The notes under the pieces are model-generated. The model was not told the DNA's origin, made no database searches, and was given only the letters and a program-made list of their open reading frames with translations. DNA of 64,000 nt from a phage. Positions within the stretch are counted from its first letter, which is position 1. Each line of letters begins with the position of its first letter. Of this stretch, positions 230 through 34,291 are shown piece by piece. The DNA lies in sequence record PZ386975.1; one strand, given 5' to 3'. The position numbers were made by a program, and so were the translations under genes.

Positions 230-550
230 ATGAGCAAAGTTTATAACACTCGCAAATTACAGATTTTCGTACTGTGCCAGTTTATGGCTAAAGAATACAA
301 CTTCTACTATTGTGGCACAGGTTTTATTAGCGACGATGATGGTTCATACCTACCATTTAAAGAAGCTGTGAAGCTCTTTAATGAAGAGAAAAACTCTAAG
401 AAAGATATCGAAAAGGTCAAGCTAACCTATAGCAAGAAAGATAAGAAGATTATCTGCCTAGATAACTTTGTAAAAGTTACTGGAGAAGCAAAAGAGTTTA
501 TGGATGAGAGTGAGATTTCATTCACAAGCATCTTGAAAGTAGCTCAGTAA
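230..550 (+). CDS. hypothetical protein (106 aa)
   Basis: ORF in co-oriented early block, followed by stem-loop near 560-590. Confidence 0.5.
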   Translation: MSKVYNTRKLQIFVLCQFMAKEYNFYYCGTGFISDDDGSYLPFKEAVKLFNEEKNSKKDIEKVKLTYSKKDKKIICLDNFVKVTGEAKEFMDESEISFTSILKVAQ

Positions 551-601
551 ACAGATACTATAAGGGAACCTTTACAGTTCCCTTTTTATTTTGGAGATAA
601 A

Positions 602-1117
602 ATGTATCTGTCAAACCTGAAACGTTCGGCTGCAATGTCAGTTCTAAGACTCAGCTTTGAGGAACGTCAAGAGTTCATTGACTCCCACCAATACGACCCT
701 TCTAACTCGAATCACATGGTTCTTTGGAATCGTGATAACTTCCGTGAAAGAGCACTTGTCCGTTATTACCCACACTACACAATAGATAACCTGTATGAAT
801 GGTGTGTTGTGAAGAACACTATTGCAACACTGAACAATCTTTGCAGGTATACAGGTAAGCAAGCATTTACATTAGGTCACCACAAACCTGTTACAAAGGG
901 TGGTGAGCATCACTGTGCAAACTGGTTTATCCAGACTAAACTTGATAACCAGAAGCAAGGAGATAGCCTTCTAAGCATCCCTAAGATGACCTATGAAGAG
1001 CAAGAGAAATATATCAAAAATAATATGCCAGATGTGCTTGACAACAACTATACAGATTTGGCAATATCTCTCCTGTTGAAGTTCGAGACAGTTTATAGGG
1101 CAACTTACAATGGCTAA
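602..1117 (+). CDS. putative HNH-type endonuclease-like protein
   Basis: motif LGHHKPVTKGGEHHCANW resembles the HH..GG..N core of HNH nucleases; RBS-like GGAG upstream. Confidence 0.45.
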   Translation: MYLSNLKRSAAMSVLRLSFEERQEFIDSHQYDPSNSNHMVLWNRDNFRERALVRYYPHYTIDNLYEWCVVKNTIATLNNLCRYTGKQAFTLGHHKPVTKGGEHHCANWFIQTKLDNQKQGDSLLSIPKMTYEEQEKYIKNNMPDVLDNNYTDLAISLLLKFETVYRATYNG

Positions 1118-1388
1118 AGAGAAGTGGGAGCTTTTACCATTAATCAGTGAAGGCGGTAATGGTTGTGAAATGTACATGATACGTGGTCATGTTCCAGAAC
1201 CAATTGCACTTGAGATGGTAAACAACTTTACAGATGGCTCTTACAAAGACTTAGAGGAGCCAACTATAAAGCAGCAATGGGTAAAGCCTGTACCAGATAG
1301 CACAGGTAACTGTAGTGTACTTTATCACGTTGTAGACCCTGCAAAATGCAAATCTGCAATGGCAGTAACAAACGTAACTTTTGATTGA
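1110..1388 (+). CDS. hypothetical protein (92 aa)
   Basis: ORF overlapping neighbours by a few nt (translational coupling pattern). Confidence 0.45.
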   Translation: MAKEKWELLPLISEGGNGCEMYMIRGHVPEPIALEMVNNFTDGSYKDLEEPTIKQQWVKPVPDSTGNCSVLYHVVDPAKCKSAMAVTNVTFD

Positions 1389-1399
1389 GAGGGAAAACT

Positions 1400-2281
1400 A
1401 TGAAAACTGTTATTGAAGCCGTCGTCACCGCACAAGAGAAATTCTTCCACACAGAAAAATTTAATATCATTCAATTCCCATCTGGAGAAATTGGTGGAAA
1501 CTTCTCTGAAGATTTTGTTAAGTTTACTGAGCGTAATGCTGGTAAGATTGATAATGTTATACTTACTGTACAGGGATATGACAAAGACACACTGTTTGCA
1601 TTAGCTTTGGCTAAAGATGCCGTTGACAGTCTTGTTCCCCAGAAATCAGCGATGAAAACCGTTGTTTTCGGGTTCTTACCAAATGCTCGATATGACCGCC
1701 ACATGTTCAAAGGTGATGCAGCAGCACTGAAAGTCTTTGCCAACCTCGTTAATGCAATGGGTTTTGATGCAGTATGTGCTCTTGACCCTCACAGTAATGT
1801 TGCAGAAAACTTATTTAAGTGCTTTCAGAGCATGAAGCAAAAAGATGTTGCAGCACACTTTGCAAGTGACCCACGCATTGATTTCTTGGTAGCCCCAGAT
1901 GCAGGTGCAGCTAAGAAGACTGAAAATACCGCTAAAGAAGTGGATAAACCGTATATCACAATGTCTAAGGTACGTAACCTTAAGACTGGTGAAATTACTG
2001 GTATGCGAATCCTTGATGATGTTGATTTGACAGATAAAACTGTCATGATTCTGGATGATATTTGTGATGGAGGCCGAACCTTCGTAGAGGCAGCGAAACA
2101 CCTACGCGAAGCAGGTGCAAAACGTGTGGAACTATATGTAACACATGGAATTTTCTCTAAAGGTGTTGAAAACTTGCTTGACAACGGAATCGACCATATC
2201 TACACTACAAACACTTTAGGTGAAGCTAAAGACCGTGGATTAACACATTATGGTCAAGTTACTGTAGCAAACATTGATTGA
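1400..2281 (+). CDS. ribose-phosphate pyrophosphokinase (Prs/PRPP-synthetase) family protein; candidate ADP-ribose pyrophosphokinase of a NAD+ reconstitution pathway
   Basis: C-terminal PRPP-binding loop VMILDDICDGGRTFVEAAKHLREAGAKRVELYVTHGIFS matches the Prs signature; start moved to ATG 1400 with GAGGGA RBS; terminator hairpin 2291-2307. Confidence 0.8.
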   Translation: MKTVIEAVVTAQEKFFHTEKFNIIQFPSGEIGGNFSEDFVKFTERNAGKIDNVILTVQGYDKDTLFALALAKDAVDSLVPQKSAMKTVVFGFLPNARYDRHMFKGDAAALKVFANLVNAMGFDAVCALDPHSNVAENLFKCFQSMKQKDVAAHFASDPRIDFLVAPDAGAAKKTENTAKEVDKPYITMSKVRNLKTGEITGMRILDDVDLTDKTVMILDDICDGGRTFVEAAKHLREAGAKRVELYVTHGIFSKGVENLLDNGIDHIYTTNTLGEAKDRGLTHYGQVTVANID

Positions 2282-2327
2282 AACTTTATAGGGGGCTTCA
2301 AAGCCCCATTTTGAGAGAGATTAAAAG

Positions 2328-4109
2328 ATGACTAAATCACTTTATGCAGTACCAGCAGGTTTAAATGCGGACGCTTACAAGTCTGGCCATATATACCAGT
2401 ACCCCAGTGCAACAGAGTACTTGATGTTCAACCTGACACCACGTAGCGACAAATGGTTTAACAGCCCTTTGGCAATTGACGGTGTAGTGGCTTTTGGTAT
2501 TCAACGTTTTGTTAAAGATTACTTGATAGACCACTGGAATGCCACTTTCTTTGAACGTGATAAAAAAGAAGCAATTGACGAAATCTTAGAAGTCATGAAT
2601 GGTGTTCTGGGTAAAGATGCTATCGGTCGGGAGCATTGGGAAGCACTTCACGACTTAGGTTATCTACCAGTTGGAGTATACGCTGTAGAAGAAGGCACAG
2701 TTGTCCCTATGCGTGTTCCGATGATTGTTTTCCAGAACACTGTTTCAGGTTTCCATTGGGTAGCAGGTTATCTAGAAGATGCTTTCTCTGCTGAGATTTG
2801 GAAGGCTTGTACCATTGCAACTATTGCATTGCACTACAAACGTATCTGTAAGAAGTGGGCTGACCTTACTTGTGATAACGACTTACATTTACCTTATCAG
2901 TGCCATGACTTTGCTATGCGTGGTATGTCCGGCTTTACTGATGACGCATTTAACGCTGTAGGCCACTTAACCAGCTTTAAAGGGACTGATAGCTTCCCTG
3001 CTGTATATACAGCTAAACGCATCTACGGACAGTCTTACCCAGTCTCTGATATTGGTGGTTCTGTACCAGCCACTGAACACTCTGTAATGTGTGCAAACAT
3101 TGCTTGGGAAGGTGGTAATGAATTGATTGAAGAAGAAAGACGCTTTAAAGGTGAATTACAAACCTTCCGTCGCTTCTTAACAGAAACTTATCCAACTGGT
3201 ATTGCAAGTGTTGTTTCAGATACTTATAACTTCTGGAGAACTGTGTCAGAAATCTTACCAGCACTCCGTAAAGAAATTATGGAACGTGATGGTAAACTGG
3301 TGATTCGTCCTGACTCTGGAGACCCTGTACATATTGTCACAGGCTATAAAGCAATCCACTTAGAGTGTGCTAAGAAGGCTTATTACGAGCACCTGAGCAA
3401 GCTGGAAGCTAGTGACACAATGCTGAATGCTGTTCTGAACATGAAGCTTGAAAACATCAACTATGGTATTGCTGGATGGCTACTGTCAGAAGGCTACGAA
3501 ATGGTTGTTGACAGAGAAGACTTTGAAGTTGCGGATACAGTATTGCTAAAGAACGCTTATATGGTTGGTTCTGCAAACGTTGTAACACGCCCTGTAGCAG
3601 AGATTGATGGAGCTATTAAGACACTGTACAACATCTTTGGAGGGACTATCAACTCTAAAGGGTTTAAGGTACTGGATGAGCACATCGGCCTTATCTATGG
3701 TGACTCTATCACACTGGAACGTGCAAACGAAATCCTGAAGCGCCTGTATGAAATGGGTTTTGCAAGCTCTAACGTAGTGTTTGGCGTAGGCTCTTACACT
3801 TACCAGTACATGACTCGTGACACCTTTGCATTTGCTGTCAAAGCAACTCTTGCAAGCATTGGTGGTAAAGAGGTTATGCTTGCAAAAGACCCTAAAACAG
3901 ATAGTGGTGTTAAGAAGTCTGCTTTTGGTGGTGTAGCACCTATGTGGGATGGTGATAAGTTGAAAGCTGTAGATGGCTATGGATTCCAGAGCTTTGCAGA
4001 TGCACTTGAACATCCAGCTTGTGCTTTACGTTTAGTCTTTAGTGACTCTGAGCAGTACGGTTACACATCTCTTGGTGATATTCGAAATAATATTGACAAG
4101 CAGCTTTAA
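2328..4109 (+). CDS. nicotinamide phosphoribosyltransferase (NAMPT/NadV) family protein, 593 aa; candidate NAD+-forming transferase
   Basis: MRGMSGF...SFKGTDSFPAV...SVPATEHSV aligns by eye to the NAMPT active-site region (GYRGVSS...NFKGTDT...SVPAAEHST); directly downstream of the Prs-like gene. Confidence 0.85.
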   Translation: MTKSLYAVPAGLNADAYKSGHIYQYPSATEYLMFNLTPRSDKWFNSPLAIDGVVAFGIQRFVKDYLIDHWNATFFERDKKEAIDEILEVMNGVLGKDAIGREHWEALHDLGYLPVGVYAVEEGTVVPMRVPMIVFQNTVSGFHWVAGYLEDAFSAEIWKACTIATIALHYKRICKKWADLTCDNDLHLPYQCHDFAMRGMSGFTDDAFNAVGHLTSFKGTDSFPAVYTAKRIYGQSYPVSDIGGSVPATEHSVMCANIAWEGGNELIEEERRFKGELQTFRRFLTETYPTGIASVVSDTYNFWRTVSEILPALRKEIMERDGKLVIRPDSGDPVHIVTGYKAIHLECAKKAYYEHLSKLEASDTMLNAVLNMKLENINYGIAGWLLSEGYEMVVDREDFEVADTVLLKNAYMVGSANVVTRPVAEIDGAIKTLYNIFGGTINSKGFKVLDEHIGLIYGDSITLERANEILKRLYEMGFASSNVVFGVGSYTYQYMTRDTFAFAVKATLASIGGKEVMLAKDPKTDSGVKKSAFGGVAPMWDGDKLKAVDGYGFQSFADALEHPACALRLVFSDSEQYGYTSLGDIRNNIDKQL

Positions 4110-4162
4110 AAGTATATGATAAGAGGCTCCTACGGGAGCCTTTTTAATTTCTGGAGAAAACT

Positions 4163-4498
4163 ATGAAAATCAAAGAGATGAACATCAACGTTGTCTTAGA
4201 AGAACGTTGGGAGAACATTAAGAAGCCTGAAGATGGTAAAAAGTTCCTTAACAAAATTTTAGTAGCAGCTAAAGAAGAACTGACTGGGAAGATTGCAGCA
4301 GCAATCACAATAAAGGTTTGTGTAAAAGGTCTTCCACAACATCACCAGTTTGCTCTTGACGAGTTTAAAGAAAGCTTCTACAATCCAAATAAACAGATGC
4401 TTGAAAGTAACTTTGCAGTATCTACAAGTATCGTTCATGACAGAAGCTTTATCCTTTACAAAAACATGAGAGGTGAGTCATGCAAGCATATTGGATAG
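4163..4498 (+). CDS. hypothetical protein (111 aa)
   Basis: ORF with RBS after rho-independent terminator 4123-4146. Confidence 0.5.
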   Translation: MKIKEMNINVVLEERWENIKKPEDGKKFLNKILVAAKEELTGKIAAAITIKVCVKGLPQHHQFALDEFKESFYNPNKQMLESNFAVSTSIVHDRSFILYKNMRGESCKHIG

Positions 4499-4656
4499 AA
4501 ATTTTACTGTCACTTGGTAGTGTAGCAGTATTTGTTTACCTTCTTTGCAAGTACTATGCAGAGCACAAGAAGTGTGATTACTGCAACGGGGAAGGGTATA
4601 CAAGAGCAGGCTGTTGCCCTATTTGTGGCGGTTCTGGTAAAATGTTTAATAAGTAA
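4480..4656 (+). CDS. small membrane protein (58 aa) with DnaJ-type zinc finger (two CxxCxGxG motifs)
   Basis: ATG 4480 after AGAGGTGAG; hydrophobic N-terminal helix then CDYCNGEG and CPICGGSG; below the 60-aa cutoff of the ORF track. Confidence 0.45.
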   Translation: MQAYWIEILLSLGSVAVFVYLLCKYYAEHKKCDYCNGEGYTRAGCCPICGGSGKMFNK

Positions 4657-4684: not shown

Positions 4685-7051
4685 ATGCGCATGGTAAACG
4701 ACCACGCAGAAGTGATTAAGAGTTCAACTTCTTTGGAGACATCTCAAGCACAGATTACAATGACACCTGAAATGTTCAGCCTTTTAAGTTCAGGTGTATA
4801 CACATTTAAAGAAAGGGCAGTGATTCGTGAACTGTCATGTAACGCAGTAGATGCTCAAAAAGAAGCTGGAAAAGAGAACATCCCATTCCATGTGCATTTA
4901 CCTACTCGATTTGAGCCTTACTTTGAAGTCCGTGACTTTGGAACTGGTTTAACCCATGACAAAGTAATGAGTTTGTATCTGAACTATGGGGCTTCTACGA
5001 AGAATGACTCCAATGATTACATTGGTGCAATGGGTATCGGCTCAAAATCCCCATTTGCAATTGCTCAGTCATTCACAGTATCTAGCTATGTTGATGGTGT
5101 TGTTAATAAGTACTCTGTTTACCTTGAGAATGGTATCCCTCAAGTAACTAAGCTTACTACCAACCCAACAAATGAACCCAATGGTTTAGCTGTACGTGTA
5201 GCAGTTGCTGACCATCGTATTTCAAAGTTCTTTGAAGAGGCTGGTCACGTATACTCATACTTTGCTGTAAAACCAGAAAGTAACGTTGTATATGATGATG
5301 TATTAGCAGATATGAATGTCATTGCCCGTGAAGAGGGTGTTTATGATGCTATGATTCATAAGCAAAGCTGGCGTTCTAGTGGCAACAGGACAGAGTTTAA
5401 TGTGGTGATGGGTAATATTGCCTACCCAGTGAACATGGAAGCATTACTTGGTGATGATTTCTTCAAAGTCTTGCCAGAGTTTTTCCGTAGGAGCGTAGAC
5501 CTTGTAAACATCTACATGCCTATTGGTTCAGTGGCTATTGCAGCTTCTCGTGAAGCATTGCAGATGAATGACACGACAAAAAATGTTATCATTGAGGCTA
5601 CTAAAAAGATAACTGAAGCCATTACAAAGGATGTTATCAAGAAAGTTAACAGCCAACCTACACTCATGGATGCTGCACAGGCTTATGCTGAGTTACGTTT
5701 GAACTCACGAGAGATGTTTAATGCTGTGTGTCCAAAGCTAGAGTGGGGAGGCGTTAAGCTTGATTCTCTGGAAGAAGAATTACTAAACATTCGTCGTGGG
5801 ATTATCTACGCAGAAGACGGCTCAGTCATTTATGAACGTGACGGTAAAGGTAATATCAAGGTTGATAGGAACGGGAACAATATCCCTAAAGTGGATTATC
5901 TTTATAATCCAGTTGCTTATGTCAAGTTCAACTCTTTAGAGAGTAAGATTCGTGCAACAGCACTTTCCTACACTCAAGAGGCAAGTATGTTCAATATCTT
6001 TGGTGCAATGCGTAAAAGCCAAATTGAACAGTTTTTGTTCGTGATTAATGACCGTCGTAATAAAAATGGCACTGAGAAGACTGTAGGCCGCAATCAGATT
6101 CTGCGTGGTGCATGTCGAGACTACGCTAACGAGTCAAGCCTGTTCCACAGATACAATGGTATTGTGTTTGTATTCTCGACTGAAAAAGAGTTAGATGATT
6201 TAATCAATCTGCATAAACTTGATAAAAGTTTGTTAAAGATTGTGAAGATGTCTGATAAGGAACACCATTATCAGCGTAAAGAAGCTGTGAGGGGTGTTGT
6301 AAAACTCTGGAAAGCTGTTCCATCAGAAACTAAAGCTTCATACACAGAGGTGTCAGAAGACCTAGATACAATTGAAGAACCCCAGCTTTATATCAAGGCA
6401 GTAGGCGACACAGTTGATGGTGAATGTTTTTGCTCATCCCCAGAAGATGTAGCTAAAACAATTGCTAATGTTATAGGAAAAACAGTCTATGTTTTCCGAA
6501 AAGCAAATTGGAAAAAGATACCAGAAGACTGGATTGAAGTAGATGAGAAGCTATTGAATGACAGCTTAACTGATGTTCACTGGATTAATCATAACAGGTA
6601 TATGACACGTATCTATATGAATGGTGTCCTTGACCTTACAAGTAGTTGGATTATTGCCAGAAACTTTACGTTTAATAACAAGAAGATTTCTCGCGGGTAT
6701 TGCTATTCACGAGATACAAACAAAACCATCTTCTTAGAAGGTAATGAGAATGCTGTTGAGGCAATGTTTGGTAAGATTCAGTATGTGGCTGCACCGTTTG
6801 CATACACTTACACTATCAGTGTTCTTCAGGATTTGAAGTCATGCCTTGACAATGATACAAAACTGTACAAAAAGATTAAGAAAGCGGGTGACCGCATGGT
6901 TATCAAACTGACAAACTACCTTTCAAAAAGAAAACAAGAAAACTTCTTGCTTTCCCATTTAGATTGGAATAAAGTGTCACCCATCGAAGTGAGTAAGTTC
7001 TTAGGCTTTGATGTGAAGTGTGTTCCAGAAGGGACTACAATTTACGATTAA
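4685..7051 (+). CDS. rIIA: rIIA-like protein with N-terminal GHKL (Bergerat-fold) ATPase domain
   Basis: N-box ELSCNAVDA, G1 box VRDFGTGL, G2 box GAMGIGSKSPF; 788 aa; followed by candidate rIIB. Confidence 0.6.
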   Translation: MRMVNDHAEVIKSSTSLETSQAQITMTPEMFSLLSSGVYTFKERAVIRELSCNAVDAQKEAGKENIPFHVHLPTRFEPYFEVRDFGTGLTHDKVMSLYLNYGASTKNDSNDYIGAMGIGSKSPFAIAQSFTVSSYVDGVVNKYSVYLENGIPQVTKLTTNPTNEPNGLAVRVAVADHRISKFFEEAGHVYSYFAVKPESNVVYDDVLADMNVIAREEGVYDAMIHKQSWRSSGNRTEFNVVMGNIAYPVNMEALLGDDFFKVLPEFFRRSVDLVNIYMPIGSVAIAASREALQMNDTTKNVIIEATKKITEAITKDVIKKVNSQPTLMDAAQAYAELRLNSREMFNAVCPKLEWGGVKLDSLEEELLNIRRGIIYAEDGSVIYERDGKGNIKVDRNGNNIPKVDYLYNPVAYVKFNSLESKIRATALSYTQEASMFNIFGAMRKSQIEQFLFVINDRRNKNGTEKTVGRNQILRGACRDYANESSLFHRYNGIVFVFSTEKELDDLINLHKLDKSLLKIVKMSDKEHHYQRKEAVRGVVKLWKAVPSETKASYTEVSEDLDTIEEPQLYIKAVGDTVDGECFCSSPEDVAKTIANVIGKTVYVFRKANWKKIPEDWIEVDEKLLNDSLTDVHWINHNRYMTRIYMNGVLDLTSSWIIARNFTFNNKKISRGYCYSRDTNKTIFLEGNENAVEAMFGKIQYVAAPFAYTYTISVLQDLKSCLDNDTKLYKKIKKAGDRMVIKLTNYLSKRKQENFLLSHLDWNKVSPIEVSKFLGFDVKCVPEGTTIYD

Positions 7052-7130: not shown

Positions 7131-8240
7131 ATGACTATTAAAACTAAAGCACAGATTGACGCAGAAATTTACAAACTGGTTAAAGAGGGTAAGCTGACTA
7201 AAACAGCTATTGCACAGAAATTTAACACCTCAACCCGTTCAGTCGGTCGTGCTGTAGAGCGTCATGAAGCAACCTTAAAAGGTAAGAAAAAGGTAGCTTC
7301 TAAACCAGCTACGAAGACTTTGAAGCAAGTTGCTAAATCAGTTAAAAAGAAAGCTGGAAAACCAGTTGAAAATGTTGTTAAAGAGACTGTACAAAAGGCT
7401 CCGGTAAATAAACTACACGAAGCTATGCAGAATGGTAACCAGATTGAGTATATGATTACTGGCGATTCTGTTATCATGACTTTCGGTGCAGATTCTGAAA
7501 TCGTTGAATCTACCCATCCGAACTACAAAGAAATCGTAATGGCTGTTGTATCCGGTGAGTATAAGAAAGCTTTCGAACTGATGAACATTCGTAAATCTAT
7601 CGAAAACTTCACTCAGGGTGCTATCACCATCAAAGGTGACAAGTTATTCTACGGTACTGTTGAGATGCGTTCTACTCTGGTTGACCGTATTCTTCACATG
7701 ATGAAGACTGGAGATAAAGGTTTTGAACGCCTTGTGATGTTCTTCGAAAAACTGATGGAAAACCCATCTAAAGACTCTGTAGAACAACTTTGGGGCTTTG
7801 TATCTCACCTTGATGTTGAAATTGATGAAGAAGGCTACATCATTGGTTGGAAGAAAGTCTCTACTCGTGAAGGCAAGCTGGTTGACTCCCACACCTACAA
7901 AGTACCTAATGATTTGGGTAACATTGTAGAAATGCCACGTTGGATGGTTGATAACAACCGTAACGTGACTTGCTCTCAAGGTCTTCATGTTGGTGCTTGG
8001 GACTATGTTCGTTGCTTCTCAGGTGATACAATCCTGAAGGTTCGTGTCCATCCACGAGATGTTGTATCTGTTCCAACTGATTACAACGATATGAAGATGC
8101 GTTCGTCTCGTTATGAAGTTGCAGCAATCGTTGATAATCAACGTAAAGTGCTGAAAGCATGGGATGGCAAGACTGAAGCTTTGCATGTCATCGTTGGCAC
8201 TGCTGGAGAACTTATCTCCCAACGTAAACGTGAAATCTAA
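7131..8240 (+). CDS. rIIB: putative rIIB-like protein (369 aa)
   Basis: size and position immediately after rIIA-like gene; no motif confirmed. Confidence 0.35.
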   Translation: MTIKTKAQIDAEIYKLVKEGKLTKTAIAQKFNTSTRSVGRAVERHEATLKGKKKVASKPATKTLKQVAKSVKKKAGKPVENVVKETVQKAPVNKLHEAMQNGNQIEYMITGDSVIMTFGADSEIVESTHPNYKEIVMAVVSGEYKKAFELMNIRKSIENFTQGAITIKGDKLFYGTVEMRSTLVDRILHMMKTGDKGFERLVMFFEKLMENPSKDSVEQLWGFVSHLDVEIDEEGYIIGWKKVSTREGKLVDSHTYKVPNDLGNIVEMPRWMVDNNRNVTCSQGLHVGAWDYVRCFSGDTILKVRVHPRDVVSVPTDYNDMKMRSSRYEVAAIVDNQRKVLKAWDGKTEALHVIVGTAGELISQRKREI

Positions 8241-28455: not shown

Positions 28456-29871
28456 ATGAGCGAATTATTCAAACATGCGCACCTTCATGCAGGTCGAACT
28501 GAAAATGGTGCTGTAAACCATACTTCATCAATGTCTGCTCTTGTAGACTTTTACAAAGCTGCTGGTTCTAGCCGTAGCAATGTAGAAATCTTACCAGACT
28601 TGTTCTACAAAGCTTTGCATGAGGATGTTGATGTTGCAGTTCGTATTTTACTGCATATGCGAGATGTACGAGAAGGTATGGGTGAGCGTAAAGCTTTCCG
28701 AACTGTTTTACTTCAAGCGATTGAAGATAAGATTTTAGAGCCTACACAGGTTCTTCGCATTATGGATAAGATTGCAGAACTTGGTCGTTTTGATGACTTC
28801 AAAATCTTCGTAGGTACTCGTTTTGAGACAGATGCCTTCAAACATTTAGAAGCAGCATTACTAGACCCTGCAACAGCAGGTTTAGCAGCTAAGTGGTTGC
28901 CACGAGTAAAACCACGCCACAAACATTTTGTAAAACGTTTCTGTAAGTTTGCAAACTTAAGCGAGAAAGAGTACCGCACACTGTTATCTGCACTGTCTGA
29001 TACGGTTGAGCAAAAAATCTCTGCTAATGAGTTTGGTAAGATTGACTACAGCAAGATTCCTTCACTCGCTGCTGCACGTTACCAAAAACTCTTTAACCGT
29101 AAAGATGGAGAACGTTACAAAGCTTACATCGAATCACTCTCAAAGGGTGAGGCTAAGATTAACGCTGGTGCTGTTTACCCATACGATGTGATTAAGTCTA
29201 TCAAGCATGGTAATGCAGATGTTGCCAATGAGCAGTGGAAAGCACTACCAAACTGGATGGCAGAAGGTGAGAACATTCTGTGTATGACCGATGTTTCAAG
29301 CTCAATGTCTTGGGTGAATCTTGGTTCAATCACTGCCCTTGATATTGGTGTATCACTTGCCTTGTATGTAGCAGAACGCAATACTGGTTGTTTTAAGAAT
29401 GAGTTAATGGTTTACTCAACAAACCCTCACTTCATCGAACTGAGTGGTGATTTACGAAACCGTCATCGTCAGGTGATGCGTCATGTTGAATATGGCTCAA
29501 CTAACTTACAAGCAGCTTTTGACCGTATTCTTGAGATAGGTAAAAGAAACAACTTGACTCAGAAAGATATGCCAAGTAAGCTTATCATCTTCTCCGATAT
29601 GGAGTTCAATCAGGTTGATGGTGCTAACGGTCGTACAAACTTTGAAGCAATTCAGAGTAAGTACAAAAAAGCTGGATATGAGATGCCACAACTGGTATTC
29701 TGGTACTTAGCAAACCGTAATGGCACTTGCGAAGTATCTGTTAAGGATAACGGTGTAGCAATGGTATCTGGTTTCTCTCCAGCCACTTTAAAAGCTCTGC
29801 TTGGTGGTGAGAAGTTTGACCCAATCAGCGTAATGCTCAAAGCAGTAATGATTGACCGTTATATCTGGTAA
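28456..29871 (+). CDS. vWA-domain protein with helical N-terminal region (Ro60/TROVE-vWA-like architecture)
   Basis: MIDAS-like DxSxS motif (CMTDVSSSMS) at about aa 275; 471 aa; upstream of the tRNA/structured-RNA cluster. Confidence 0.5.
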   Translation: MSELFKHAHLHAGRTENGAVNHTSSMSALVDFYKAAGSSRSNVEILPDLFYKALHEDVDVAVRILLHMRDVREGMGERKAFRTVLLQAIEDKILEPTQVLRIMDKIAELGRFDDFKIFVGTRFETDAFKHLEAALLDPATAGLAAKWLPRVKPRHKHFVKRFCKFANLSEKEYRTLLSALSDTVEQKISANEFGKIDYSKIPSLAAARYQKLFNRKDGERYKAYIESLSKGEAKINAGAVYPYDVIKSIKHGNADVANEQWKALPNWMAEGENILCMTDVSSSMSWVNLGSITALDIGVSLALYVAERNTGCFKNELMVYSTNPHFIELSGDLRNRHRQVMRHVEYGSTNLQAAFDRILEIGKRNNLTQKDMPSKLIIFSDMEFNQVDGANGRTNFEAIQSKYKKAGYEMPQLVFWYLANRNGTCEVSVKDNGVAMVSGFSPATLKALLGGEKFDPISVMLKAVMIDRYIW

Positions 29872-30036: not shown

Positions 30037-30113
30037 CTCTGTTTAGCTCAGCTTGGTAGAGCGTTCCGTTTGGGGCGGTAAGGCCGGAGGTTCAAGTCCT
30101 CCAACAGAGACCA
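30037..30113 (+). tRNA. tRNA-Pro (anticodon UGG)
   Basis: acceptor CTCTGTT/AACAGAG, T-arm GGAGGTTCAAGTCCTCC, encoded CCA. Confidence 0.6.
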
Positions 30114-30130
30114 AATTTAAAGGGGTTACT

Positions 30131-30487
30131 ATGAGATTTTTAAAAGAATGTCCAGTTCATGGTTTAACTGAACATAGCATTCATAAGAATGGTAACGCCG
30201 GTAATAGAGTAAATTGTCTAAAATGTTGTGCATTAAGGACAAAACTTAGAGAGGATGCCAATAGGGAGAAAGCATACAAGTTTTATGGCGATAGTTGCAA
30301 AATTTGTGGCTATAATAAATGTAAAAATGCTTTAGAATGGCATCACCTTAACCCAAACGAAAAAGAGAATACACCATCAAAAATTATGGGTGCATCTTGG
30401 GAAAAGGTTAAAAAAGAACTTGATAAATGTGTTTTGCTCTGTGCTAATTGCCACAGAGAGGTTCATAGTGGAATTACAACGGTTTAA
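30131..30487 (+). CDS. HNH endonuclease
   Basis: Cys-rich Zn motifs (CLKCC, CKICG) and WHHLNPNEK...CANCHREVH HNH core; start moved to ATG 30131 because the track ORF overlaps tRNA-Pro. Confidence 0.75.
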   Translation: MRFLKECPVHGLTEHSIHKNGNAGNRVNCLKCCALRTKLREDANREKAYKFYGDSCKICGYNKCKNALEWHHLNPNEKENTPSKIMGASWEKVKKELDKCVLLCANCHREVHSGITTV

Positions 30488-30488
30488 T

Positions 30489-30563
30489 GTCGTAGAAGGC
30501 AAATGGTTAGCCACCTGACCTTCAATCAGTTGCTCGCAGGTTCGAATCCTGTCTACGACACCA
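30489..30563 (+). tRNA. tRNA, anticodon uncertain (loop CCTTCAA, possibly UUC/Glu)
   Basis: acceptor GTCGTAG/CTACGAC, T-arm GCAGGTTCGAATCCTGT, CCA. Confidence 0.45.
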
Positions 30564-30567
30564 GTTT

Positions 30568-30646
30568 TGACAGAAGACCAATTACAGCAAACTTAATCTT
30601 ATTCATCTGAAGGTAAATCGGACAAAGAAGAGATTTGGTCTGGTCA
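30568..30646 (+). ncRNA. structured RNA element Y1: conserved bulged helix (outer 4 bp TGAC/GTCA, internal loop AGA opposite G, inner AGACCAA/TTGGTCT)
   Basis: inverted repeat with covarying outer helix; shares motif CAGAAGACC..TACAGCAA with three paralogs. Confidence 0.4.
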
Positions 30647-30655
30647 TTAAGAATT

Positions 30656-30731
30656 GCGGGTATAGAGAAAGGGCGTCTCACATGTCTCATTAGCATGGTA
30701 TCGGCAGGTTCGACTCCTGCACCCGCCTCCA
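30656..30731 (+). tRNA. tRNA with anticodon CAU (Met or Ile2)
   Basis: anticodon stem CATGT/GCATG with loop CTCATTA; T-arm GCAGGTTCGACTCCTGC; acceptor has one mismatch. Confidence 0.45.
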
Positions 30732-30734
30732 ATT

Positions 30735-30800
30735 TTGCAGAAGACCGTATTCAGCAACAAACTACTTTTTGCGGATAAAAGAAAAAACACGGTCTGGCAA
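30735..30800 (+). ncRNA. structured RNA element Y2 (outer TTGC/GCAA, inner AGACCGT/ACGGTCT)
   Basis: same bulged-helix architecture as Y1 with compensatory changes. Confidence 0.4.
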
Positions 30801-30808
30801 TGTATTAA

Positions 30809-30885
30809 GGTTAGGAAGCACATAAGGTATGTGCGGTCGCCTGTTAAGCGAATGGCACAGGGTTCGAATCCCTGACTAACCGCCA
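30809..30885 (+). tRNA. tRNA-Asn (GUU)
   Basis: anticodon loop CTGTTAA, T-arm CAGGGTTCGAATCCCTG, G73, CCA. Confidence 0.55.
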
Positions 30886-30954
30886 AATTTAGGAGAGAAG
30901 CGATTGCTCACCGATTTGTAAGGTGCAAGTCCTTAGCCTGAATAGAAATTAAAT

Positions 30955-31042
30955 GTGTCGTTATCCCGTAGATGGTAGCGGTGGGGACTGTAAATCCCTT
31001 GTCATTGAGACTCGGTAGGTTCGACTCCTACACGGCACACCA
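30955..31042 (+). tRNA. tRNA-Tyr (GUA), long variable arm
   Basis: anticodon arm GGGGACTGTAAATCCCT; 88 nt; acceptor GTGTCGT/ACGGCAC. Confidence 0.6.
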
Positions 31043-31047
31043 ATAAA

Positions 31048-31125
31048 GGTTATGTAGTTTAATTTGGTTAAAATACTCCCCTGTCACGGGAGATGATGAG
31101 GGTTCAAATCCCTTCGTAACCGCCA
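31048..31125 (+). tRNA. tRNA-Asp (GUC)
   Basis: anticodon stem CTCCC/GGGAG with loop CTGTCAC; CCA. Confidence 0.6.
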
Positions 31126-31151
31126 ATTTTGAGAGGGCTATTTAGCCCCTC

Positions 31152-31186
31152 CCTTAAAGGGTTCTTACGAGTATCCTTTAAAGGAG
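31152..31186 (+). repeat. conserved palindromic hairpin CCTTAAAGGGTTCTTACGAGTATCCTTTAAAGG
   Basis: related copies at 34182-34208 and 32003-32030. Confidence 0.5.
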
Positions 31187-31265
31187 CAGAAGACCAAATA
31201 CAGCAAGAACGTATGAAAATTTCAAGCCAATTTAATTTTGAAAAATTTAAAACTTGGTCTGGCTC
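31184..31265 (+). ncRNA. structured RNA element Y3 (outer GAGC/GCTC, inner AGACCAA/TTGGTCT)
   Basis: same bulged-helix architecture. Confidence 0.4.
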
Positions 31266-31272
31266 AACAAAT

Positions 31273-31409
31273 TTACAGAAGACCGTTTACAGCAAAACTT
31301 AAACAATCTATTTCTCGGTAAAGAAAAGGCGAAGGTTCGATTCCTTCACTCGGCAGATGTCGAGTTGGTGTAATGGTAGCACTTAAGATGATAAACAACG
31401 GTCTGGTAA
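31273..31409 (+). ncRNA. structured RNA element Y4 (outer TTAC/GTAA, inner AGACCGTT/AACGGTCT) enclosing a circularly permuted tRNA-like module; Y-RNA/YrlA-like candidate
   Basis: T-arm GAAGGTTCGATTCCTTC (31331-31347), then 3' acceptor strand ACTCGGC, 5-nt linker, 5' acceptor strand GTCGAGT and D-arm TGGTGTAATGGTAGCAC. Confidence 0.45.
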
Positions 31410-31553
31410 TTATCTTTGTAGATAAGTTATTAAGCTTACCTGTGAGTATGCGACCACAAAGGGTGAAAGGGTAAATTCTAGATTTAAACCCAAAAAGGCA
31501 CATCGCTACAGACCTTAAGCAAGTCTGGGTAGCTTATCTACAAAGATAATTTA
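31405..31553 (+). repeat. 19-bp perfect inverted repeat TAATTATCTTTGTAGATAAG / CTTATCTACAAAGATAATT flanking about 108 nt
   Basis: arms at about 31405-31425 and 31534-31553, between Y4 and tRNA-Lys. Confidence 0.55.
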
Positions 31554-31555
31554 AT

Positions 31556-31631
31556 GGAAGTGTAGCAGAATGGTGATGCGGCAGACTTTTAATCTGACAG
31601 GCGATGGGTTCGAATCCCTCCACTTCTACCA
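31556..31631 (+). tRNA. tRNA-Lys (UUU)
   Basis: anticodon loop CTTTTAA; acceptor GGAAGTG/CACTTCT; paralog of tRNA at 32785. Confidence 0.5.
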
Positions 31632-31635
31632 AAAT

Positions 31636-31712
31636 GGTTCAGTCGCAGATAAGGTAATTCAAGGGTCTCATAAGACCTATGAATGTGGGTTCGATTCCCA
31701 TCTGAACCTCCA
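31636..31712 (+). tRNA. tRNA with anticodon CAU (Met or Ile2)
   Basis: acceptor GGTTCAG/CTGAACC, loop CTCATAA, T-arm GTGGGTTCGATTCCCAT. Confidence 0.5.
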
Positions 31713-31714
31713 AT

Positions 31715-31789
31715 TGTGGGTTAGCATAAATGGTAATGCAAACGGCTGATAACCGTTAGAAGAGGGTTCGATACCCTCACCTACAACCA
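31715..31789 (+). tRNA. tRNA-Ile (GAU)
   Basis: D-stem GCAT/ATGC, anticodon stem AACGG/CCGTT with loop CTGATAA. Confidence 0.6.
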
Positions 31790-31804
31790 ATTTCAATAAA
31801 GTTG

Positions 31805-31833
31805 TTGACATTGAGATGTGACTACTTTATAGT
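31805..31833 (+). promoter_or_regulatory. sigma70-like promoter TTGACA-17-TATAGT inside the tRNA cluster
   Basis: -35 at 31805-31810, -10 at 31828-31833. Confidence 0.5.
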
Positions 31834-32036
31834 AACCTTAGTTTTCGTTGCGTAGCGTCTATTTTGCAAATTTAAAATAAATGCAAACGACAATGTTTTT
31901 CTGGCAGTAGCTTGATAGGCTAAACACCAGTGAGGTCTTCCAATCCCTCATCAAAGAATTTGGCGTACTAGCCCACGGTATGATTAATAAAGTGGGCATC
32001 TTTAAGGGCTTTCTAAGAGAGTCTTTAAAGATTAAT

Positions 32037-32113
32037 GCACCCTTAGTTCAATTGGATAGAGCAACGGTCTTCTAAATCGTTAGTTACAGGTTCGAATCCT
32101 GTAGGGTGTACCA
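32037..32113 (+). tRNA. tRNA-Arg (UCU)
   Basis: anticodon loop CTTCTAA, T-arm ACAGGTTCGAATCCTGT. Confidence 0.6.
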
Positions 32114-32256
32114 ATTTAGTTAGCAGAATACTTAGACGACCTAAGCGGGTCTTCCTGTAGGGAGGTGGTCTGTATCTCATGTTTTCCAGAACATGTAAAT
32201 AATCTGAGAAGGGGCTTTACAGTGTTGAGATAATACGGTAAGCTTCGAATTATAGT

Positions 32257-32339
32257 ATGGGACGATGTTAAGACTCTAAGGCATGAGCAACGGATTCCAA
32301 CACCGTTTCAAAGGGGTTCAACTCCTCCGTCCCATGCCA
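32257..32339 (+). tRNA. atypical tRNA (83 nt, enlarged D region), anticodon possibly CCA (Trp)
   Basis: acceptor ATGGGAC/GTCCCAT perfect; anticodon region AACGG-ATTCCAACA-CCGTT. Confidence 0.4.
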
Positions 32340-32352
32340 AAGTCTTATTAGG

Positions 32353-32442
32353 GGTAGGTAGCGGCTAATGGTAGCCAAACTGTCTTGAAAACAGTTGCCA
32401 CTGTAGAGATACGGTGAGGGTTCGACTCCTTTACTTACCGCC
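32353..32442 (+). tRNA. tRNA-Ser (UGA), long variable arm
   Basis: anticodon stem ACTGT/ACAGT with loop CTTGAAA; 90 nt. Confidence 0.55.
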
Positions 32443-32698
32443 TAATAAGATTTTAAAGCCAAGCTTCATTCGGATGTTGCTTTGGTATCCCTCGTGTATT
32501 GTCGTACACACAGATAAAGCACCTAGTAGGTGTCACGGAGAAGAGATAATATCAAGCTCTCCAAAGGTTCTAGTCACCGGATTAAACAAGACTATGCAAA
32601 GACCTTTTTAGGTCTTTTTAGAGGGCTTCTAAGGTTATTACAGCTTGTTGTGGAACCTTGTTGCTTAGGTTCTTAGAAGTTCTCTAAAAAGATTTAAT

Positions 32699-32777
32699 GG
32701 GAGATTGACGGCAACTTGGTAGACCTATCTCGCTTAGAACGAGATGCTTGAGGGTTCGAATCCCTTGTCTCCTACCA
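32699..32777 (+). tRNA. tRNA with anticodon UAG (Leu-type) but short variable arm
   Basis: anticodon stem TCTCG/CGAGA with loop CTTAGAA; T-arm GAGGGTTCGAATCCCTT. Confidence 0.45.
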
Positions 32778-32784
32778 AATTAAT

Positions 32785-32860
32785 GCAGGTGTAGCAAAAT
32801 GGTTATGCGGCTGACTCTTAATCAGTAAGACGATGGGTTCAATTCCCTCCACCTGTACCA
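32785..32860 (+). tRNA. tRNA-Lys (CUU)
   Basis: anticodon loop CTCTTAA; paralog of 31556. Confidence 0.5.
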
Positions 32861-32866
32861 GACATT

Positions 32867-32943
32867 GGGGATGTAGTTTACATGGTTAAAACATAAGTTT
32901 TGCAAACTTAAGTACAGGGTTCAATTCCCTGCTTCTCCACCAA
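32867..32943 (+). tRNA. tRNA-Ala (UGC)
   Basis: D-stem GTTT/AAAC, anticodon stem TAAGT/ACTTA with loop TTTGCAA. Confidence 0.55.
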
Positions 32944-32949
32944 TTAGTG

Positions 32950-33023
32950 CATCCATAGTTTAAACGGGAAAATTACAGTCTTCCAAACTGAGGTTGAGGG
33001 TTCGATTCCCTCTGGATGCTCCA
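32950..33023 (+). tRNA. tRNA-Gly (UCC)
   Basis: acceptor GCATCCA/TGGATGC perfect; loop CTTCCAA. Confidence 0.55.
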
Positions 33024-33029
33024 AACAAT

Positions 33030-33106
33030 GCTGCTTTCGTATAATTGGCTATTACACATCCCTTGTAAGGATGGAAATGCAGGTTCGAGTCCTGTGAGCA
33101 GCACCA
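33030..33106 (+). tRNA. tRNA-Thr (UGU)
   Basis: anticodon stem CATCC/GGATG with loop CTTGTAA. Confidence 0.6.
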
Positions 33107-33109
33107 ATT

Positions 33110-33170
33110 CAGAGGTCAAGTGAAAGACCGCTGGTGTCAACTGAAGACCGTAACAAATTCCACGGAGTTG
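33110..33170 (+). ncRNA. fifth, more divergent stem-loop element containing the GAAGACCGT motif
   Basis: outer inverted repeat AGAGGTC/GACCTCT enclosing ..CTGAAGACCGTAACAAA.. Confidence 0.3.
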
Positions 33171-33201
33171 AGTTAGCGGCACAACTTCAGACCTCTTTCA
33201 T

Positions 33202-33276
33202 ACTCGCTTAGTTTATATGGTAAAACACCACCCTTACAAGATGAAGAAAAAGGTTCAAGTTCTTTAGTGAGTACCA
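33202..33276 (+). tRNA. tRNA, anticodon uncertain (loop CTTACAA, possibly UAC/Val)
   Basis: acceptor ACTCGCT/AGTGAGT, D-stem GTTT/AAAC; weak anticodon stem. Confidence 0.4.
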
Positions 33277-33277
33277 T

Positions 33278-33355
33278 GTTCCAGTATCCCAATTGGCAGA
33301 GGATGCAAGCTCAAACCTTGTACTAGTGACGGTTCGAATCCGTCTTGGAACACCA
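33278..33355 (+). tRNA. tRNA with anticodon CAA (Leu-type) but short variable arm
   Basis: anticodon stem GCAAG/CTTGT with loop CTCAAAC; T-arm GACGGTTCGAATCCGTC. Confidence 0.45.
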
Positions 33356-33374
33356 ATTTTAAGAGGCTATTTAG

Positions 33375-33932
33375 ATGAGATACTTAAAGTATGCTTCATG
33401 GATTTTCTTAGCTTTGTTAGAGCCATTTGCAGCAATCTTAGCAGTTATCTTAGCACCTTTTGTAGTTCCATTCTACAGTGAGAAGAAAGGACACTTACCT
33501 TTCGGGTTCAGATGGATGGAGACATATGACAACCCAATTGATGGTGATGAAGGTCACGTTAAAAGATGGGCTAATATTAGATGGATTGGTAAGCTGGGTG
33601 TCTACATGCAGAGAGTTGGATGGCTCTGGAGAAACAAAGCTTATAATTTCTCTTACCATGTATTAGGAAGAGATGTAAAAGATGTTACTAAGTGGAAAGG
33701 TAATATCAACGTAAGTTCTGACCCTGAAGATAATCAGACTGGTTATCTCCTAATGTGGAACAGTAATGCTTGGGGATTATTCGCTTTTATTCCGTCAATT
33801 AAAATCTTTGGTAAACAGTTTTACTGGAGAATTTATGTTGGATGGAAACTAAAAAGTGTTGTCCCAGAAGAAAGAGCATTCTCAAGGGAAAGAGTTATGT
33901 TGGCATTCTTTATTCATCCGCTGAGAAAGTAA
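33375..33932 (+). CDS. hypothetical integral membrane protein (185 aa) embedded in the tRNA cluster
   Basis: RBS AAGAGG; N-terminal hydrophobic helices; Trp-rich. Confidence 0.55.
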   Translation: MRYLKYASWIFLALLEPFAAILAVILAPFVVPFYSEKKGHLPFGFRWMETYDNPIDGDEGHVKRWANIRWIGKLGVYMQRVGWLWRNKAYNFSYHVLGRDVKDVTKWKGNINVSSDPEDNQTGYLLMWNSNAWGLFAFIPSIKIFGKQFYWRIYVGWKLKSVVPEERAFSRERVMLAFFIHPLRK

Positions 33933-33940
33933 AGATTTAA

Positions 33941-34016: not shown

Positions 34017-34018
34017 AT

Positions 34019-34096: not shown

Positions 34097-34101
34097 AATT
34101 T

Positions 34102-34285: not shown

Positions 34286-34291
34286 ATTTAT

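Follow-up and report, generated by a model that had tools for sequence, protein, structure and literature searches.

The closest described system to the locus analysed here is the operon bas63_0079 plus bas63_0080 of phage Bas63 (Escherichia phage JohannRWettstein). NAD+ reconstitution pathway 1 (NARP1), composed of Adps and Namat, was discovered and genetically tested in this operon (10.1101/2024.02.11.579819). NAD+ is restored in cells infected by Bas63, and Bas63 lacking genes 79-80 is sensitised to SIR2-HerA, giving about 20-fold fewer plaques (10.1101/2024.02.11.579819). Single deletion of g79 or g80 lowers plating on Sir2-HerA cells by 1e4-1e6, and this is rescued by complementation (10.1101/2024.10.10.617714).

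The two enzymatic reactions have been followed in vitro for homologues only (SpbetaL1, DyoEdafos and Paenibacillus foliorum). For the Bas63 protein, which "did not purify well", SpbetaL1 homologues were substituted (10.1101/2024.02.11.579819). Our literature search found no report of a purified or in-vitro-assayed Adps or Namat of the Felixounavirus type. SpbetaL1 Adps converts ADPR and ATP to ADPR-PP in vitro, and its authors conclude that it is not a Prs (10.1101/2024.02.11.579819).

Two further pathways are related. NARP1-AP of Vibrio phage Gary, and likewise of Cody, has the same Adps and Namat core as our locus with a Macro phosphatase, Adpp, between them (Adps-Adpp-Namat). NARP2 of Vibrio phage KVP40 pairs a NAMPT/NadV with an NMNAT, the place that the Prs-like Adps takes in our locus.

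The gene pair and its Bas63 counterpart

The window, a 64,000-nucleotide stretch of a phage genome (PZ386975.1), is of the Felixounavirus (Felix O1-like) genome type and matches 258 phage records, the best at 96% nucleotide identity. An earlier note on this DNA had described a Prs-like gene upstream of a NAMPT-like gene. Both open reading frames are present at the positions in Table 1, on one strand, with 46 nt from the adps stop codon to the start of the directly adjoining Namat homologue. The program-made list of open reading frames opens adps at TTG 1385, upstream of ATG 1400; the ATG that gives the 293-residue protein follows GAGAGGGA. The profile searches that the note had proposed recovered both families. 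Adps matches TIGR01251 ribP_PPkin (E=1e-40) and phrog_619 (E=3e-99), while Namat matches NF006629 (E=1.5e-139), phrog_448 (E=8e-202) and Pfam NAPRTase (E=1e-34). The Prs-like and NAMPT-like assignments far exceed chance.

Table 1. Positions of genes, protein segments and predicted signals in the window
Feature	Position	Strand	Description
Terminator-like hairpin	562-584	+	8-bp stem followed by a T-run; also in ECOH1 and Bas63, there with a G-U change
Bas63 gp77 homologue	602-1117	+	171 aa, HNH-like; 91% identical to bas63_0077
Bas63 gp78 homologue	1110-1388	+	92 aa; phrog_4726 (unknown function)
adps	1400-2281	+	Prs-family, 293 aa; predicted ADP-ribose pyrophosphate synthetase, NARP1 enzyme one
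Intergenic GC hairpin	2292-2312	+	6-bp stem at 2292-2307, GGGGCT-TCAA-AGCCCC, then A+TTTT
namat	2328-4109	+	NAMPT-family, 593 aa; predicted nicotinamide ADP-ribose transferase, NARP1 enzyme two
SCL (selectivity-clamp loop) codons	2451-2456	+	K42-W43; K42 aligns with SpbetaL1 R40
Inserted alpha/beta subdomain of Namat	3345-3608	+	aa ~340-427, ~77 aa; lineage-specific
SCH (selectivity-clamp helix) codons	3789-3821	+	G488-S-Y-T-Y-Q-Y-M-T-R-D498, the Namat signature motif GSYTYQYMTRD
Sigma-70-like promoter match	4093-4120	+	TTGACA-16-TATGAT, 11/12, strong
Intrinsic-terminator-like hairpin	4121-4144	+	10-bp stem with 5 GC pairs, 4-nt loop, T-run; ends the namat transcript
Adpp-like Macro-domain gene	11598-12383		7.5 kb and 15 genes downstream of the operon, unlinked

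The locus and the Bas63 operon are alike in genus, gene order and flanking genes, and they have the intergenic hairpin and the terminator in common. They differ past the namat terminator, where Bas63 has an extra 345-bp open reading frame (bas63_0081) that the window lacks. The protein products have equal lengths in the two phages. Adps is identical to Bas63 gp79 at 288 of 293 residues (98%) and Namat to gp80 at 578 of 593 (97%). None of the substitutions, 5 in Adps and 15 in Namat, falls on a mapped catalytic or clamp residue.

Adps keeps the catalytic Lys/Arg of the family, its K190 and R192 aligning with the flexible-loop residues K194 and R196 of human PRPS1. From what is established for Prs enzymes, we take K194 of human PRPS1 to be equivalent to K197 of B. 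subtilis Prs and K162 of SpbetaL1 Adps, the catalytic lysine. One passage in the Methods of the NARP1 study also bears on the equivalence of SpbetaL1 K162 and B. subtilis K197 (10.1101/2024.02.11.579819). The only Prs model that the protein passes is the broad TIGR01251 (139.6 bits against a cut-off of 113); it stays under the cut-off of every other equivalog or subfamily model, the best scores being 114 bits (cut-off 296) and 102 bits (cut-off 297). Bas63 Adps was one of the query sequences used to define the Adps clade, and a Namat homologue adjoins adps in 97% of that clade (10.1101/2024.02.11.579819). By these comparisons, the Adps of the window would belong to the phage Adps clade and not with cellular Prs. 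Two Adps alleles that differ in their N-terminal domain circulate among otherwise near-identical phages.

Namat core, selectivity clamp and inserted subdomain

Among solved structures, sequence and fold both point to a Namat as the nearest to the window protein, ahead of NadV and NAMPT. Structure prediction, another step the earlier note had suggested, gave an AF2 model with a confidence (pLDDT) of 92.3. The closest structures are those of SpbetaL1 Namat, 9w5w and 9w5x (E=7e-127 by sequence; TM 0.95 on the target by fold), with 37-38% identity between model and crystal in the Foldseek structural alignment. The SpbetaL1 and window systems have two genes each and agree in catalytic core, SCH motif class and overall fold. 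In the alignment, D15, Y17, F195, R198, D221 and A248/H251 of the window protein correspond to D13, Y15, F189, R192, D215 and A242/His of SpbetaL1 Namat, and R327, D329, G458-D459 and G488-S489 to R306, D308, G360-D361 and G390-S391. These catalytic-core positions show no variation across 31 homologues.

The NAMPT fold and the nicotinamide and ribose-phosphate catalytic residues are also common to the NAMPT/NadV of NARP2, human NAMPT and H. ducreyi NadV. What separates Namat from them is the phosphoribosyl donor, ADPR-PP for NARP1 Namat but PRPP for NAMPT, and the aromatic clamp on the adenine, which the window Namat has and Nampt lacks. The consensus GS-X-Phi1-X-Phi2-X-Phi3-TRD is found in Namat and not in Nampt (NAR 2026 Namat structure paper), and GSYTYQYMTRD of the window protein fits it. 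Within this helix, the alignment pairs Y490 and Y494 with F392 and Y396 of SpbetaL1 Namat, which stack on adenine. The second half of the clamp is the SCL, which stacks on adenine either with an Arg in position 3 or with the residue that follows a Lys or Tyr (NAR 2026). SpbetaL1 Namat uses Arg40, whereas the window protein has K42-W43 at that position. Bas63 Namat is the cited example of the Lys type, with the next residue stacking on adenine (NAR 2026), and its SCL segment differs from that of the window solely at residue 22 (V in Bas63, I in the window). K42-W43 is predicted to fill the adenine-stacking position of the SCL, as in Bas63 Namat.

The length of 593 aa given in the earlier note is correct, and it exceeds that of SpbetaL1 Namat (491 aa) by 102 aa. 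The surplus consists of 4 aa in the beta1-beta2 loop, 15 aa at 258-272, mainly the subdomain (about 77 aa, at 344-427 in the alignment) and some residues at the two termini; SpbetaL1 Namat lacks both the 15-aa insertion and the subdomain. The subdomain is modelled confidently, and our search found no recognisable structural relative of it. Within the phage collection it is confined to Ounavirinae-type phage records, and it goes unmentioned in the Namat structure paper (NAR 2026). This Ounavirinae-specific element may serve in regulation or in the docking of a partner. Docking predicts that the insertion co-varies with the N-domain allele of Adps. There was no sign of this, since ECOH1 pairs an insertion 100% identical to that of the window with the other Adps allele.

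Transcription signals and flanking genes

The earlier note had given each gene its own terminator. This holds for namat, which has a strong site at its 3' end (Table 1). Behind adps there stands no more than a GC hairpin with TTTT, which leaves the earlier statement partly right. That hairpin fell under the threshold of the terminator scan and was not called; the 61-nt intergenic segment folds at -14.2 kcal/mol (z=-2.1), and the hairpin is kept in Bas63 and ECOH1. Its possible roles are weak termination, attenuation or RNA stabilisation. The sigma-70-like promoter match lies within the 3' end of namat, touching the terminator hairpin, and is also kept in Bas63 and ECOH1. If active, it probably serves the downstream genes.

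Upstream, the transcription unit of adps and namat likely has its 5' limit at the hairpin that precedes the gp77 homologue. The terminator scan found no terminator between the gp77 homologue and adps, and this gene is probably co-transcribed with the pair. It matches phrog_3500 and, weakly, an HNH family; in Bas63, gp77 counters retron Ec67 (PhageMaP 2024). The gp78 homologue has an 8-nt overlap with it and stops 11 nt short of adps.

Pfam and PHROG searches of the six flanking open reading frames (30-1388 and 4163-4656) returned DUFs and one weak HNH match only, with no Macro/Adpp, RyR-domain RyDEP, Nudix or NMNAT beside the pair. The examined stretches of the Bas63 record likewise carry no annotated NMNAT or Nudix gene. 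An Rfam scan returned tRNAs alone; in the neighbourhood of the operon it called no regulatory RNA. Farther away, the open reading frame at 16507-17073 is Bas63 gp107-like; the likeness to Tpt1 proposed from PhageMaP had no sequence-level PDB or Pfam support.

Probable NAD+ reconstitution, its alternatives and the unlinked Macro gene

We regard it as very probable that the gene pair is the NARP1 operon of a Felixounavirus, with Adps and Namat rebuilding NAD+. A defence NADase of the SIR2, TIR, DSR or SEFIR type would split NAD+ into ADP-ribose and nicotinamide (step 1). Adps, a diverged pyrophosphokinase of the Prs family, would transfer pyrophosphate from ATP to the free ribose of ADP-ribose, forming ADPR-PP (step 2). 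Namat, which belongs to the NAMPT family of transferases and has a selectivity clamp that binds adenine, would then let nicotinamide displace the pyrophosphate of ADPR-PP, yielding NAD+ directly (step 3). The phage would replicate despite NAD+-depleting immunity. Because the proteins are 97-98% identical to those of Bas63, we infer that the operon shares the Bas63-type chemistry and anti-defence phenotype. The two-enzyme anti-defence module that the earlier note had proposed, making NAD+ from ADP-ribose and nicotinamide, matches the demonstrated role of the orthologous Bas63 operon.

A canonical salvage route, in which a true Prs makes PRPP from ribose-5-phosphate, a true NAMPT makes NMN and host NadR/PncC carries this on to NAD+, would agree with the GenBank annotation of the pair (ribose-phosphate pyrophosphokinase and nicotinamide phosphoribosyltransferase) and with the score of Namat on NCBIfam NF006629, 465.7 bits where 405 is the cut-off. 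Given PRPP without ADPR-PP in vitro, SpbetaL1 Namat also produces NMN (10.1101/2024.02.11.579819; NAR 2026), so some canonical side activity is possible. As the main function, however, this route is extremely improbable. The effect of Bas63 on SIR2-HerA is retained when the host lacks both pncC and nadR, and ADPR-PP (m/z 720.010) was detected in vivo, where it was seen only with wild-type Bas63 plus the defence system (10.1101/2024.02.11.579819). The ADPR-PP formed by SpbetaL1 Adps, the distance of the window Adps below all Prs equivalog cut-offs and the adenine-clamp motif that Nampt lacks argue in the same direction. A pair making PRPP and NMN only, the outcome that the earlier note named as contrary to its reading, has already been tested and rejected in published work on this operon family.

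The pair might instead supply more NAD+ for phage metabolism in any host, with the anti-defence effect incidental. The operon does lie among genes of nucleotide metabolism, with nrdA, nrdB, nrdD and nrdG upstream of it, and in PhageMaP retron Ec86 and hhe, for which a link to NAD+ is not established, were also countered, though less strongly (10.1101/2024.10.10.617714). Such a housekeeping role is very improbable given that ADPR-PP was not seen in Bas63-infected cells without a defence system (10.1101/2024.02.11.579819), which fits a pathway fed by ADPR from NAD+ cleavage. Moreover, the pyrophosphokinase genes fall in nonessential genome segments (PhageMaP, 10.1101/2024.10.10.617714), and the strong phenotype shows on Sir2-HerA cells.

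With NARP1 as the preferred reading, the Macro-domain gene raises a further question of range. In NARP1-AP the Macro gene is inside the operon; in the window the only one found lies outside it (Table 1). Its product is 29% identical to Cody gp176 (E=8e-15) and has an extra ~105 aa at the C-terminus. The authors of NARP1-AP require a Macro-domain gene within two genes of NARP1, and since their criterion looks only that far, Felixounaviruses score as plain NARP1. These phages could run a dispersed NARP1-AP, the candidate Macro protein dephosphorylating ADPR-1''-phosphate to ADPR in trans, a proposal that we hold to be possible yet doubtful. The idea of a Macro family specific to NARP1 was dropped, since members turned up in 2851 phage records, those of T4-like phages that lack NARP1 among them. 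As a separate observation, a homologue of the window Macro protein holds the Adpp position inside the Thalassavirus NARP1 operon.

The NARP1 identity of the pair is correct and already known, from Osterman et al. 2024, PhageMaP 2024 and NAR 2026. Because the near-identical Bas63 operon was published in 2024, the window adds only another member to NARP1, a phage-specific pathway of two previously unknown reactions that makes NAD+-depleting defences ineffective as a class, among them SIR2-HerA, type I Thoeris and DSR. Through the unlinked Adpp-like Macro gene, NARP1 could counter more kinds of defence: a dispersed NARP1-AP, if true, would let a two-gene NARP1 also defeat NAD+ depletion of the aRES type (RES phosphorylase).

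Identity of the gene pair

Both reading frames lie where the earlier note placed them, on the plus strand (ORF list), and the Prs and NAMPT families it named for them are left in no doubt by profile searches. The adps protein matches the ribose-phosphate diphosphokinase profile TIGR01251 (E=1e-40), as well as Pfam Pribosyltran, Pfam Pribosyl_synth and phrog_619 (E=3e-99). The namat protein matches NF006629 (E=1.5e-139), phrog_448 (E=8e-202), Pfam NAPRTase and Pfam NAMPT_N. A megablast search with window 1300-4200 matched 258 phage records. Almost all belong to Felixounavirus (Felix O1-like, Ounavirinae), with Escherichia, Salmonella, Shigella and Citrobacter as source hosts and a top nucleotide identity of 96%. 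Among them is Bas63 (Escherichia phage JohannRWettstein), where the window pair has its collinear counterparts in bas63_0079 and bas63_0080. The alignments are gapless, with 288 of 293 residues identical between Adps and gp79 (98%) and 578 of 593 between Namat and gp80 (97%). Three records carry other host names: GU169904 (Staphylococcus phage SA1) has the NARP1 region at 95% nucleotide identity, MG065668 (Campylobacter phage A126) an Adps match at 79% amino acid identity, and MG065662 (Campylobacter phage A142) only a distant match to the Macro protein described below (31% amino acid identity). Holding Felixounavirus-like sequence under Staphylococcus or Campylobacter names, all three are probably chimeric or contaminated.

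The study that named NAD+ reconstitution pathway 1 (NARP1) began with exactly this two-gene operon of Bas63 (Osterman et al., 10.1101/2024.02.11.579819). On SIR2-HerA cells, phage deleted for genes 79-80 formed about 20-fold fewer plaques and NAD+ did not recover; the phenotype was seen also in a pncC nadR double-deletion host. ADPR-pyrophosphate (ADPR-PP) was detected by untargeted mass spectrometry only when wild-type phage infected defence-carrying cells. Since the Bas63 protein "did not purify well", enzymology was done on the homologous SpbetaL1 operon. There, Adps makes ADPR-PP from ADPR and ATP; in vitro assays led the authors to conclude that the enzyme is not a Prs. Namat forms NAD+ from ADPR-PP and nicotinamide, favouring ADPR-PP over PRPP. 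In the same study 859 of about 20,000 phage genomes carry NARP1, and Namat adjoins 97% of Adps-clade genes (10.1101/2024.02.11.579819). Independently, PhageMaP showed that losing either g79 or g80 alone costs Bas63 a factor of 1e4-1e6 in plating on Sir2-HerA, a defect rescued by complementation (10.1101/2024.10.10.617714). SpbetaL1 Namat has since been solved with nicotinamide and with NAD+ (NAR 2026, PMC12774641). From this work the authors defined an adenine "selectivity clamp" with two parts. One is the beta1-beta2 loop (SCL), which varies; the other is a helix motif (SCH, GS-X-Phi-X-Phi-X-Phi-TRD), which is conserved and lacking in Nampt.

We aligned window Namat to the SpbetaL1 structure 9w5x, numbered as in PMC12774641. 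All catalytic-core residues are in place (SpbetaL1 equivalents in brackets): D15 and Y17 (D13', Y15'), F195 and R198 (F189, R192), D221 (D215), A248 and H251 (A242, the catalytic His), R327 and D329 (R306, D308), and G458-D459-S460 (G360-D361-A362). The SCH reads G488-S-Y-T-Y-Q-Y-M-T-R-D498, with aromatic residues at both stacking positions. The SCL, K42-W43, is of the type with Lys followed by the stacking residue, which PMC12774641 illustrates with Bas63 Namat. An alignment of 31 diverse homologues shows no variation at the core, SCH and SCL positions tested. Structure prediction, proposed earlier as a check, gave a confident AlphaFold2 model of Namat (pLDDT 92.3, pTM 0.91). In the PDB it is closest to the Namat crystal structures (TM 0.95 on target), with H. 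ducreyi NadV and mammalian NAMPT ranking behind. In Adps, the flexible-loop residues K190 and R192 are kept, aligning with K194 and R196 of human PRPS1. The Adps scores fall far short of all curated Prs equivalog cut-offs (102 vs 297 bits in one case), which fits a diverged subfamily.

On the core residues, SCH, SCL, fold and Adps features, the pair is therefore filed as NARP1. The alternative that the annotations suggest, a true Prs and a true NAMPT feeding host NMN salvage, is extremely improbable, contradicted by the Bas63 genetics and metabolomics (10.1101/2024.02.11.579819) and by the Namat clamp signature (PMC12774641). A housekeeping role, in which the pair simply boosts NAD+, is also very improbable. 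Against it stand the lack of ADPR-PP in infected cells without a defence system (10.1101/2024.02.11.579819), the placement of the pyrophosphokinase genes in nonessential genome segments (PhageMaP, 10.1101/2024.10.10.617714) and the strong phenotype on Sir2-HerA cells. The NAD+ reconstitution proposed from the window was thus the correct reading, given the near-identical Bas63 operon and the clamp signature, although of a system already described. From the 97-98% identity, we infer that the enzymatic steps and phenotype of the window operon would be those of NARP1.

Namat insertion and Adps alleles

The excess of about 100 residues noticed earlier in Namat amounts to 102 over the 491-aa SpbetaL1 protein. 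The largest share, about 77 residues, falls at aa 344-427; another 15 are at aa 258-272 and 4 in the SCL, and the two termini add a few each. The insertion at aa 344-427 lies between the RPDSGDP strand and a helix starting at about E424. Among Namat homologues the loop after this strand is a hot spot for insertions, with lengths from 20 to 103 residues. It holds at least two unrelated types of long insert, the second found for example in homologues P0090, P0097 and P0113 ("...DTPHG...NRYDKQYY..."). In the Namat model the insertion is a compact alpha/beta unit (pLDDT 93-96) with strands at 342-344, 392-395, 401-406 and 419-422 and helices at 345-358, 363-370, 379-387 and 407-413. Modelled alone it also folds (pLDDT 85, pTM 0.75). 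A tblastn search found it in 254 phage records, every one Ounavirinae-type, with identity of 88-100% in about 212 of them and below 60% in 42. For the below-60% records listed, among them Shigella phages Sf13 and Sf14, Citrobacter phage Mordin and Escherichia phage phiSUSP1, the figure is 43-52%. The text of PMC12774641 does not mention the insertion: "insertion", "extra" and "longer" appear nowhere, and the sole "inserted" concerns cloning.

The Adps of Felixounaviruses falls into two allele classes. Window adps and that of phage ECOH1, which has the other allele, are 61-64% identical in nucleotides over 1401-1700 and at least 90% from 1901 on. The proteins share 81% of residues, with nearly all changes before aa 170. 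The namat insertion segment of the two phages is 100% identical. The allele common to the window and Bas63 is the minority one, with about 54 records at least 90% identical vs about 200 at 60-90%. The pattern suggests mosaic recombination or a diversifying N-domain.

Operon boundaries and neighbouring genes

Features of the window around and beyond the gene pair
Feature	Position	Strand	Remarks
Sigma-70-like promoter match, weaker	533-561	+	TTGAAA-17-TACTAT; abuts 562-584 hairpin
Nearest upstream terminator-like site	562-584	+	
gp77 homologue	602-1117	+	91% identical to Bas63 gp77
adps	1400-2281	+	293 aa from ATG; GAGAGGGA precedes that ATG
Allele-variable part of Adps	1400-1900		5' part of adps, N-terminal domain
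Intergenic GC stem, 6 bp	2292-2297 pairing 2302-2307		Between adps and namat; followed by A+TTTT
namat	2328-4109	+	593 aa
Large Namat insertion	3345-3608	+	Namat aa 340-427
Sigma-70-like promoter match	4093-4120	+	11/12; TTGACA-16-TATGAT; abuts 4121-4144 hairpin
Strong terminator-like hairpin	4121-4144	+	Follows namat (scan)
rIIA homologue	4685-7051	+	
rIIB homologue	7131-8240	+	
Macro-domain protein gene	11598-12383	+	261 aa; orthologue of bas63_0095 "putative phosphatase"
DUF2828/DUF7788/VWA-like protein gene	28456-29871	+	Bas63 gp130 orthologue
tRNA cluster	30037-35292	+	24 tRNAs (ARAGORN)

The mechanical ORF list sets the adps start at an upstream TTG, 1385. The earlier note gave each gene its own terminator, which is half right: namat is followed by a strong terminator-like hairpin, but the gap between the genes holds only the weak GC stem. 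This stem is conserved in Bas63 and ECOH1, has modest stability (z=-2.1) and lies under the terminator-scan threshold, so the published one-operon description stands. Between the nearest upstream terminator-like site and adps lie two genes (602-1117 and 1110-1388), the second with hardly any gap to adps, and the transcription unit may be gp77-gp78-adps-namat. At both 533-584 and 4093-4144 the predicted promoter ends exactly where the hairpin starts, as also in Bas63 and ECOH1. Judged from sequence, a transcript begun at either promoter would lack the 5' arm of the hairpin.

Pfam and PHROG scans of the ORFs flanking the pair found no Macro, RyR, Nudix or NMNAT domain, and the system is therefore a core two-gene NARP1. 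It differs from NARP1-AP, which has a Macro phosphatase inside the operon (10.64898/2026.01.28.702374), and from the RyDEP-containing variant (10.64898/2026.05.28.727677). PhageMaP (10.1101/2024.10.10.617714) reported that Bas63 gp77, described as GIY-YIG, counters retron Ec67, that rIIA and rIIB act in counter-defence against QatABCD, and that the Bas63 versions of rIIA, rIIB and gp130 counter QatABCD and ppl. As it carries their homologues, the window has, in addition to NARP1, several genes that experiments implicate in counter-defence. The gp77 homologue itself gave a weak HNH-endonuclease match alone (phrog_2214, E=7e-6), with an HH...N...H-type motif.

Bas63 has an extra 345-bp ORF between the namat terminator and the next gene (bas63_0081, hypothetical protein; 5863-6207 of Bas63 sequence piece L001), which the window (about 4150-4160) and ECOH1 lack. 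Phage Tribble, whose match is likewise split in two and spans about 350 extra bases, probably also carries a bas63_0081-like ORF. In the tRNA cluster, Rfam found one additional tRNA missed by ARAGORN (30489-30560, 55 bits), probably tRNA-Glu from its position in Bas63. Between it and tRNA-Pro lies an HNH-endonuclease-like ORF (about 30131-30487, EWHHLNP...CANCHREVH; region 30113-30655), where Bas63 has just 7 nt.

A Macro-domain gene outside the operon

The window has a Macro gene 15 genes from namat. Its product matches Pfam PF01661 (E=1e-7, above cut-off) and phrog_335 "phosphatase", and its PDB sequence matches include TARG1/OARD1 and, weakly, the yeast ADPR-1''-phosphatase Poa1p. The first 155 aa align end to end with gp176 of Vibrio phage Cody (29% identity, E=8e-15), a Macro protein encoded between adps and namat in the NARP1-AP layout; the extra C-terminal ~105 aa matched no family. 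The product could, speculatively, be an ADPR-1''-phosphate phosphatase feeding NARP1, and an enzyme of this kind acting in trans would be biochemically sufficient to do so. Since the Macro family is found in 2851 phage records, some of them from T4-like phages that lack NARP1, the link is speculative. The aRES paper counted Macro genes only if within two genes of NARP1 (10.64898/2026.01.28.702374), a limit under which Felixounaviruses would not count as NARP1-AP. The window operon is essentially the founding, already known NARP1 example, and the remaining interest lies in the Namat subdomain, the Adps N-domain dimorphism and this unlinked Adpp-like Macro gene.
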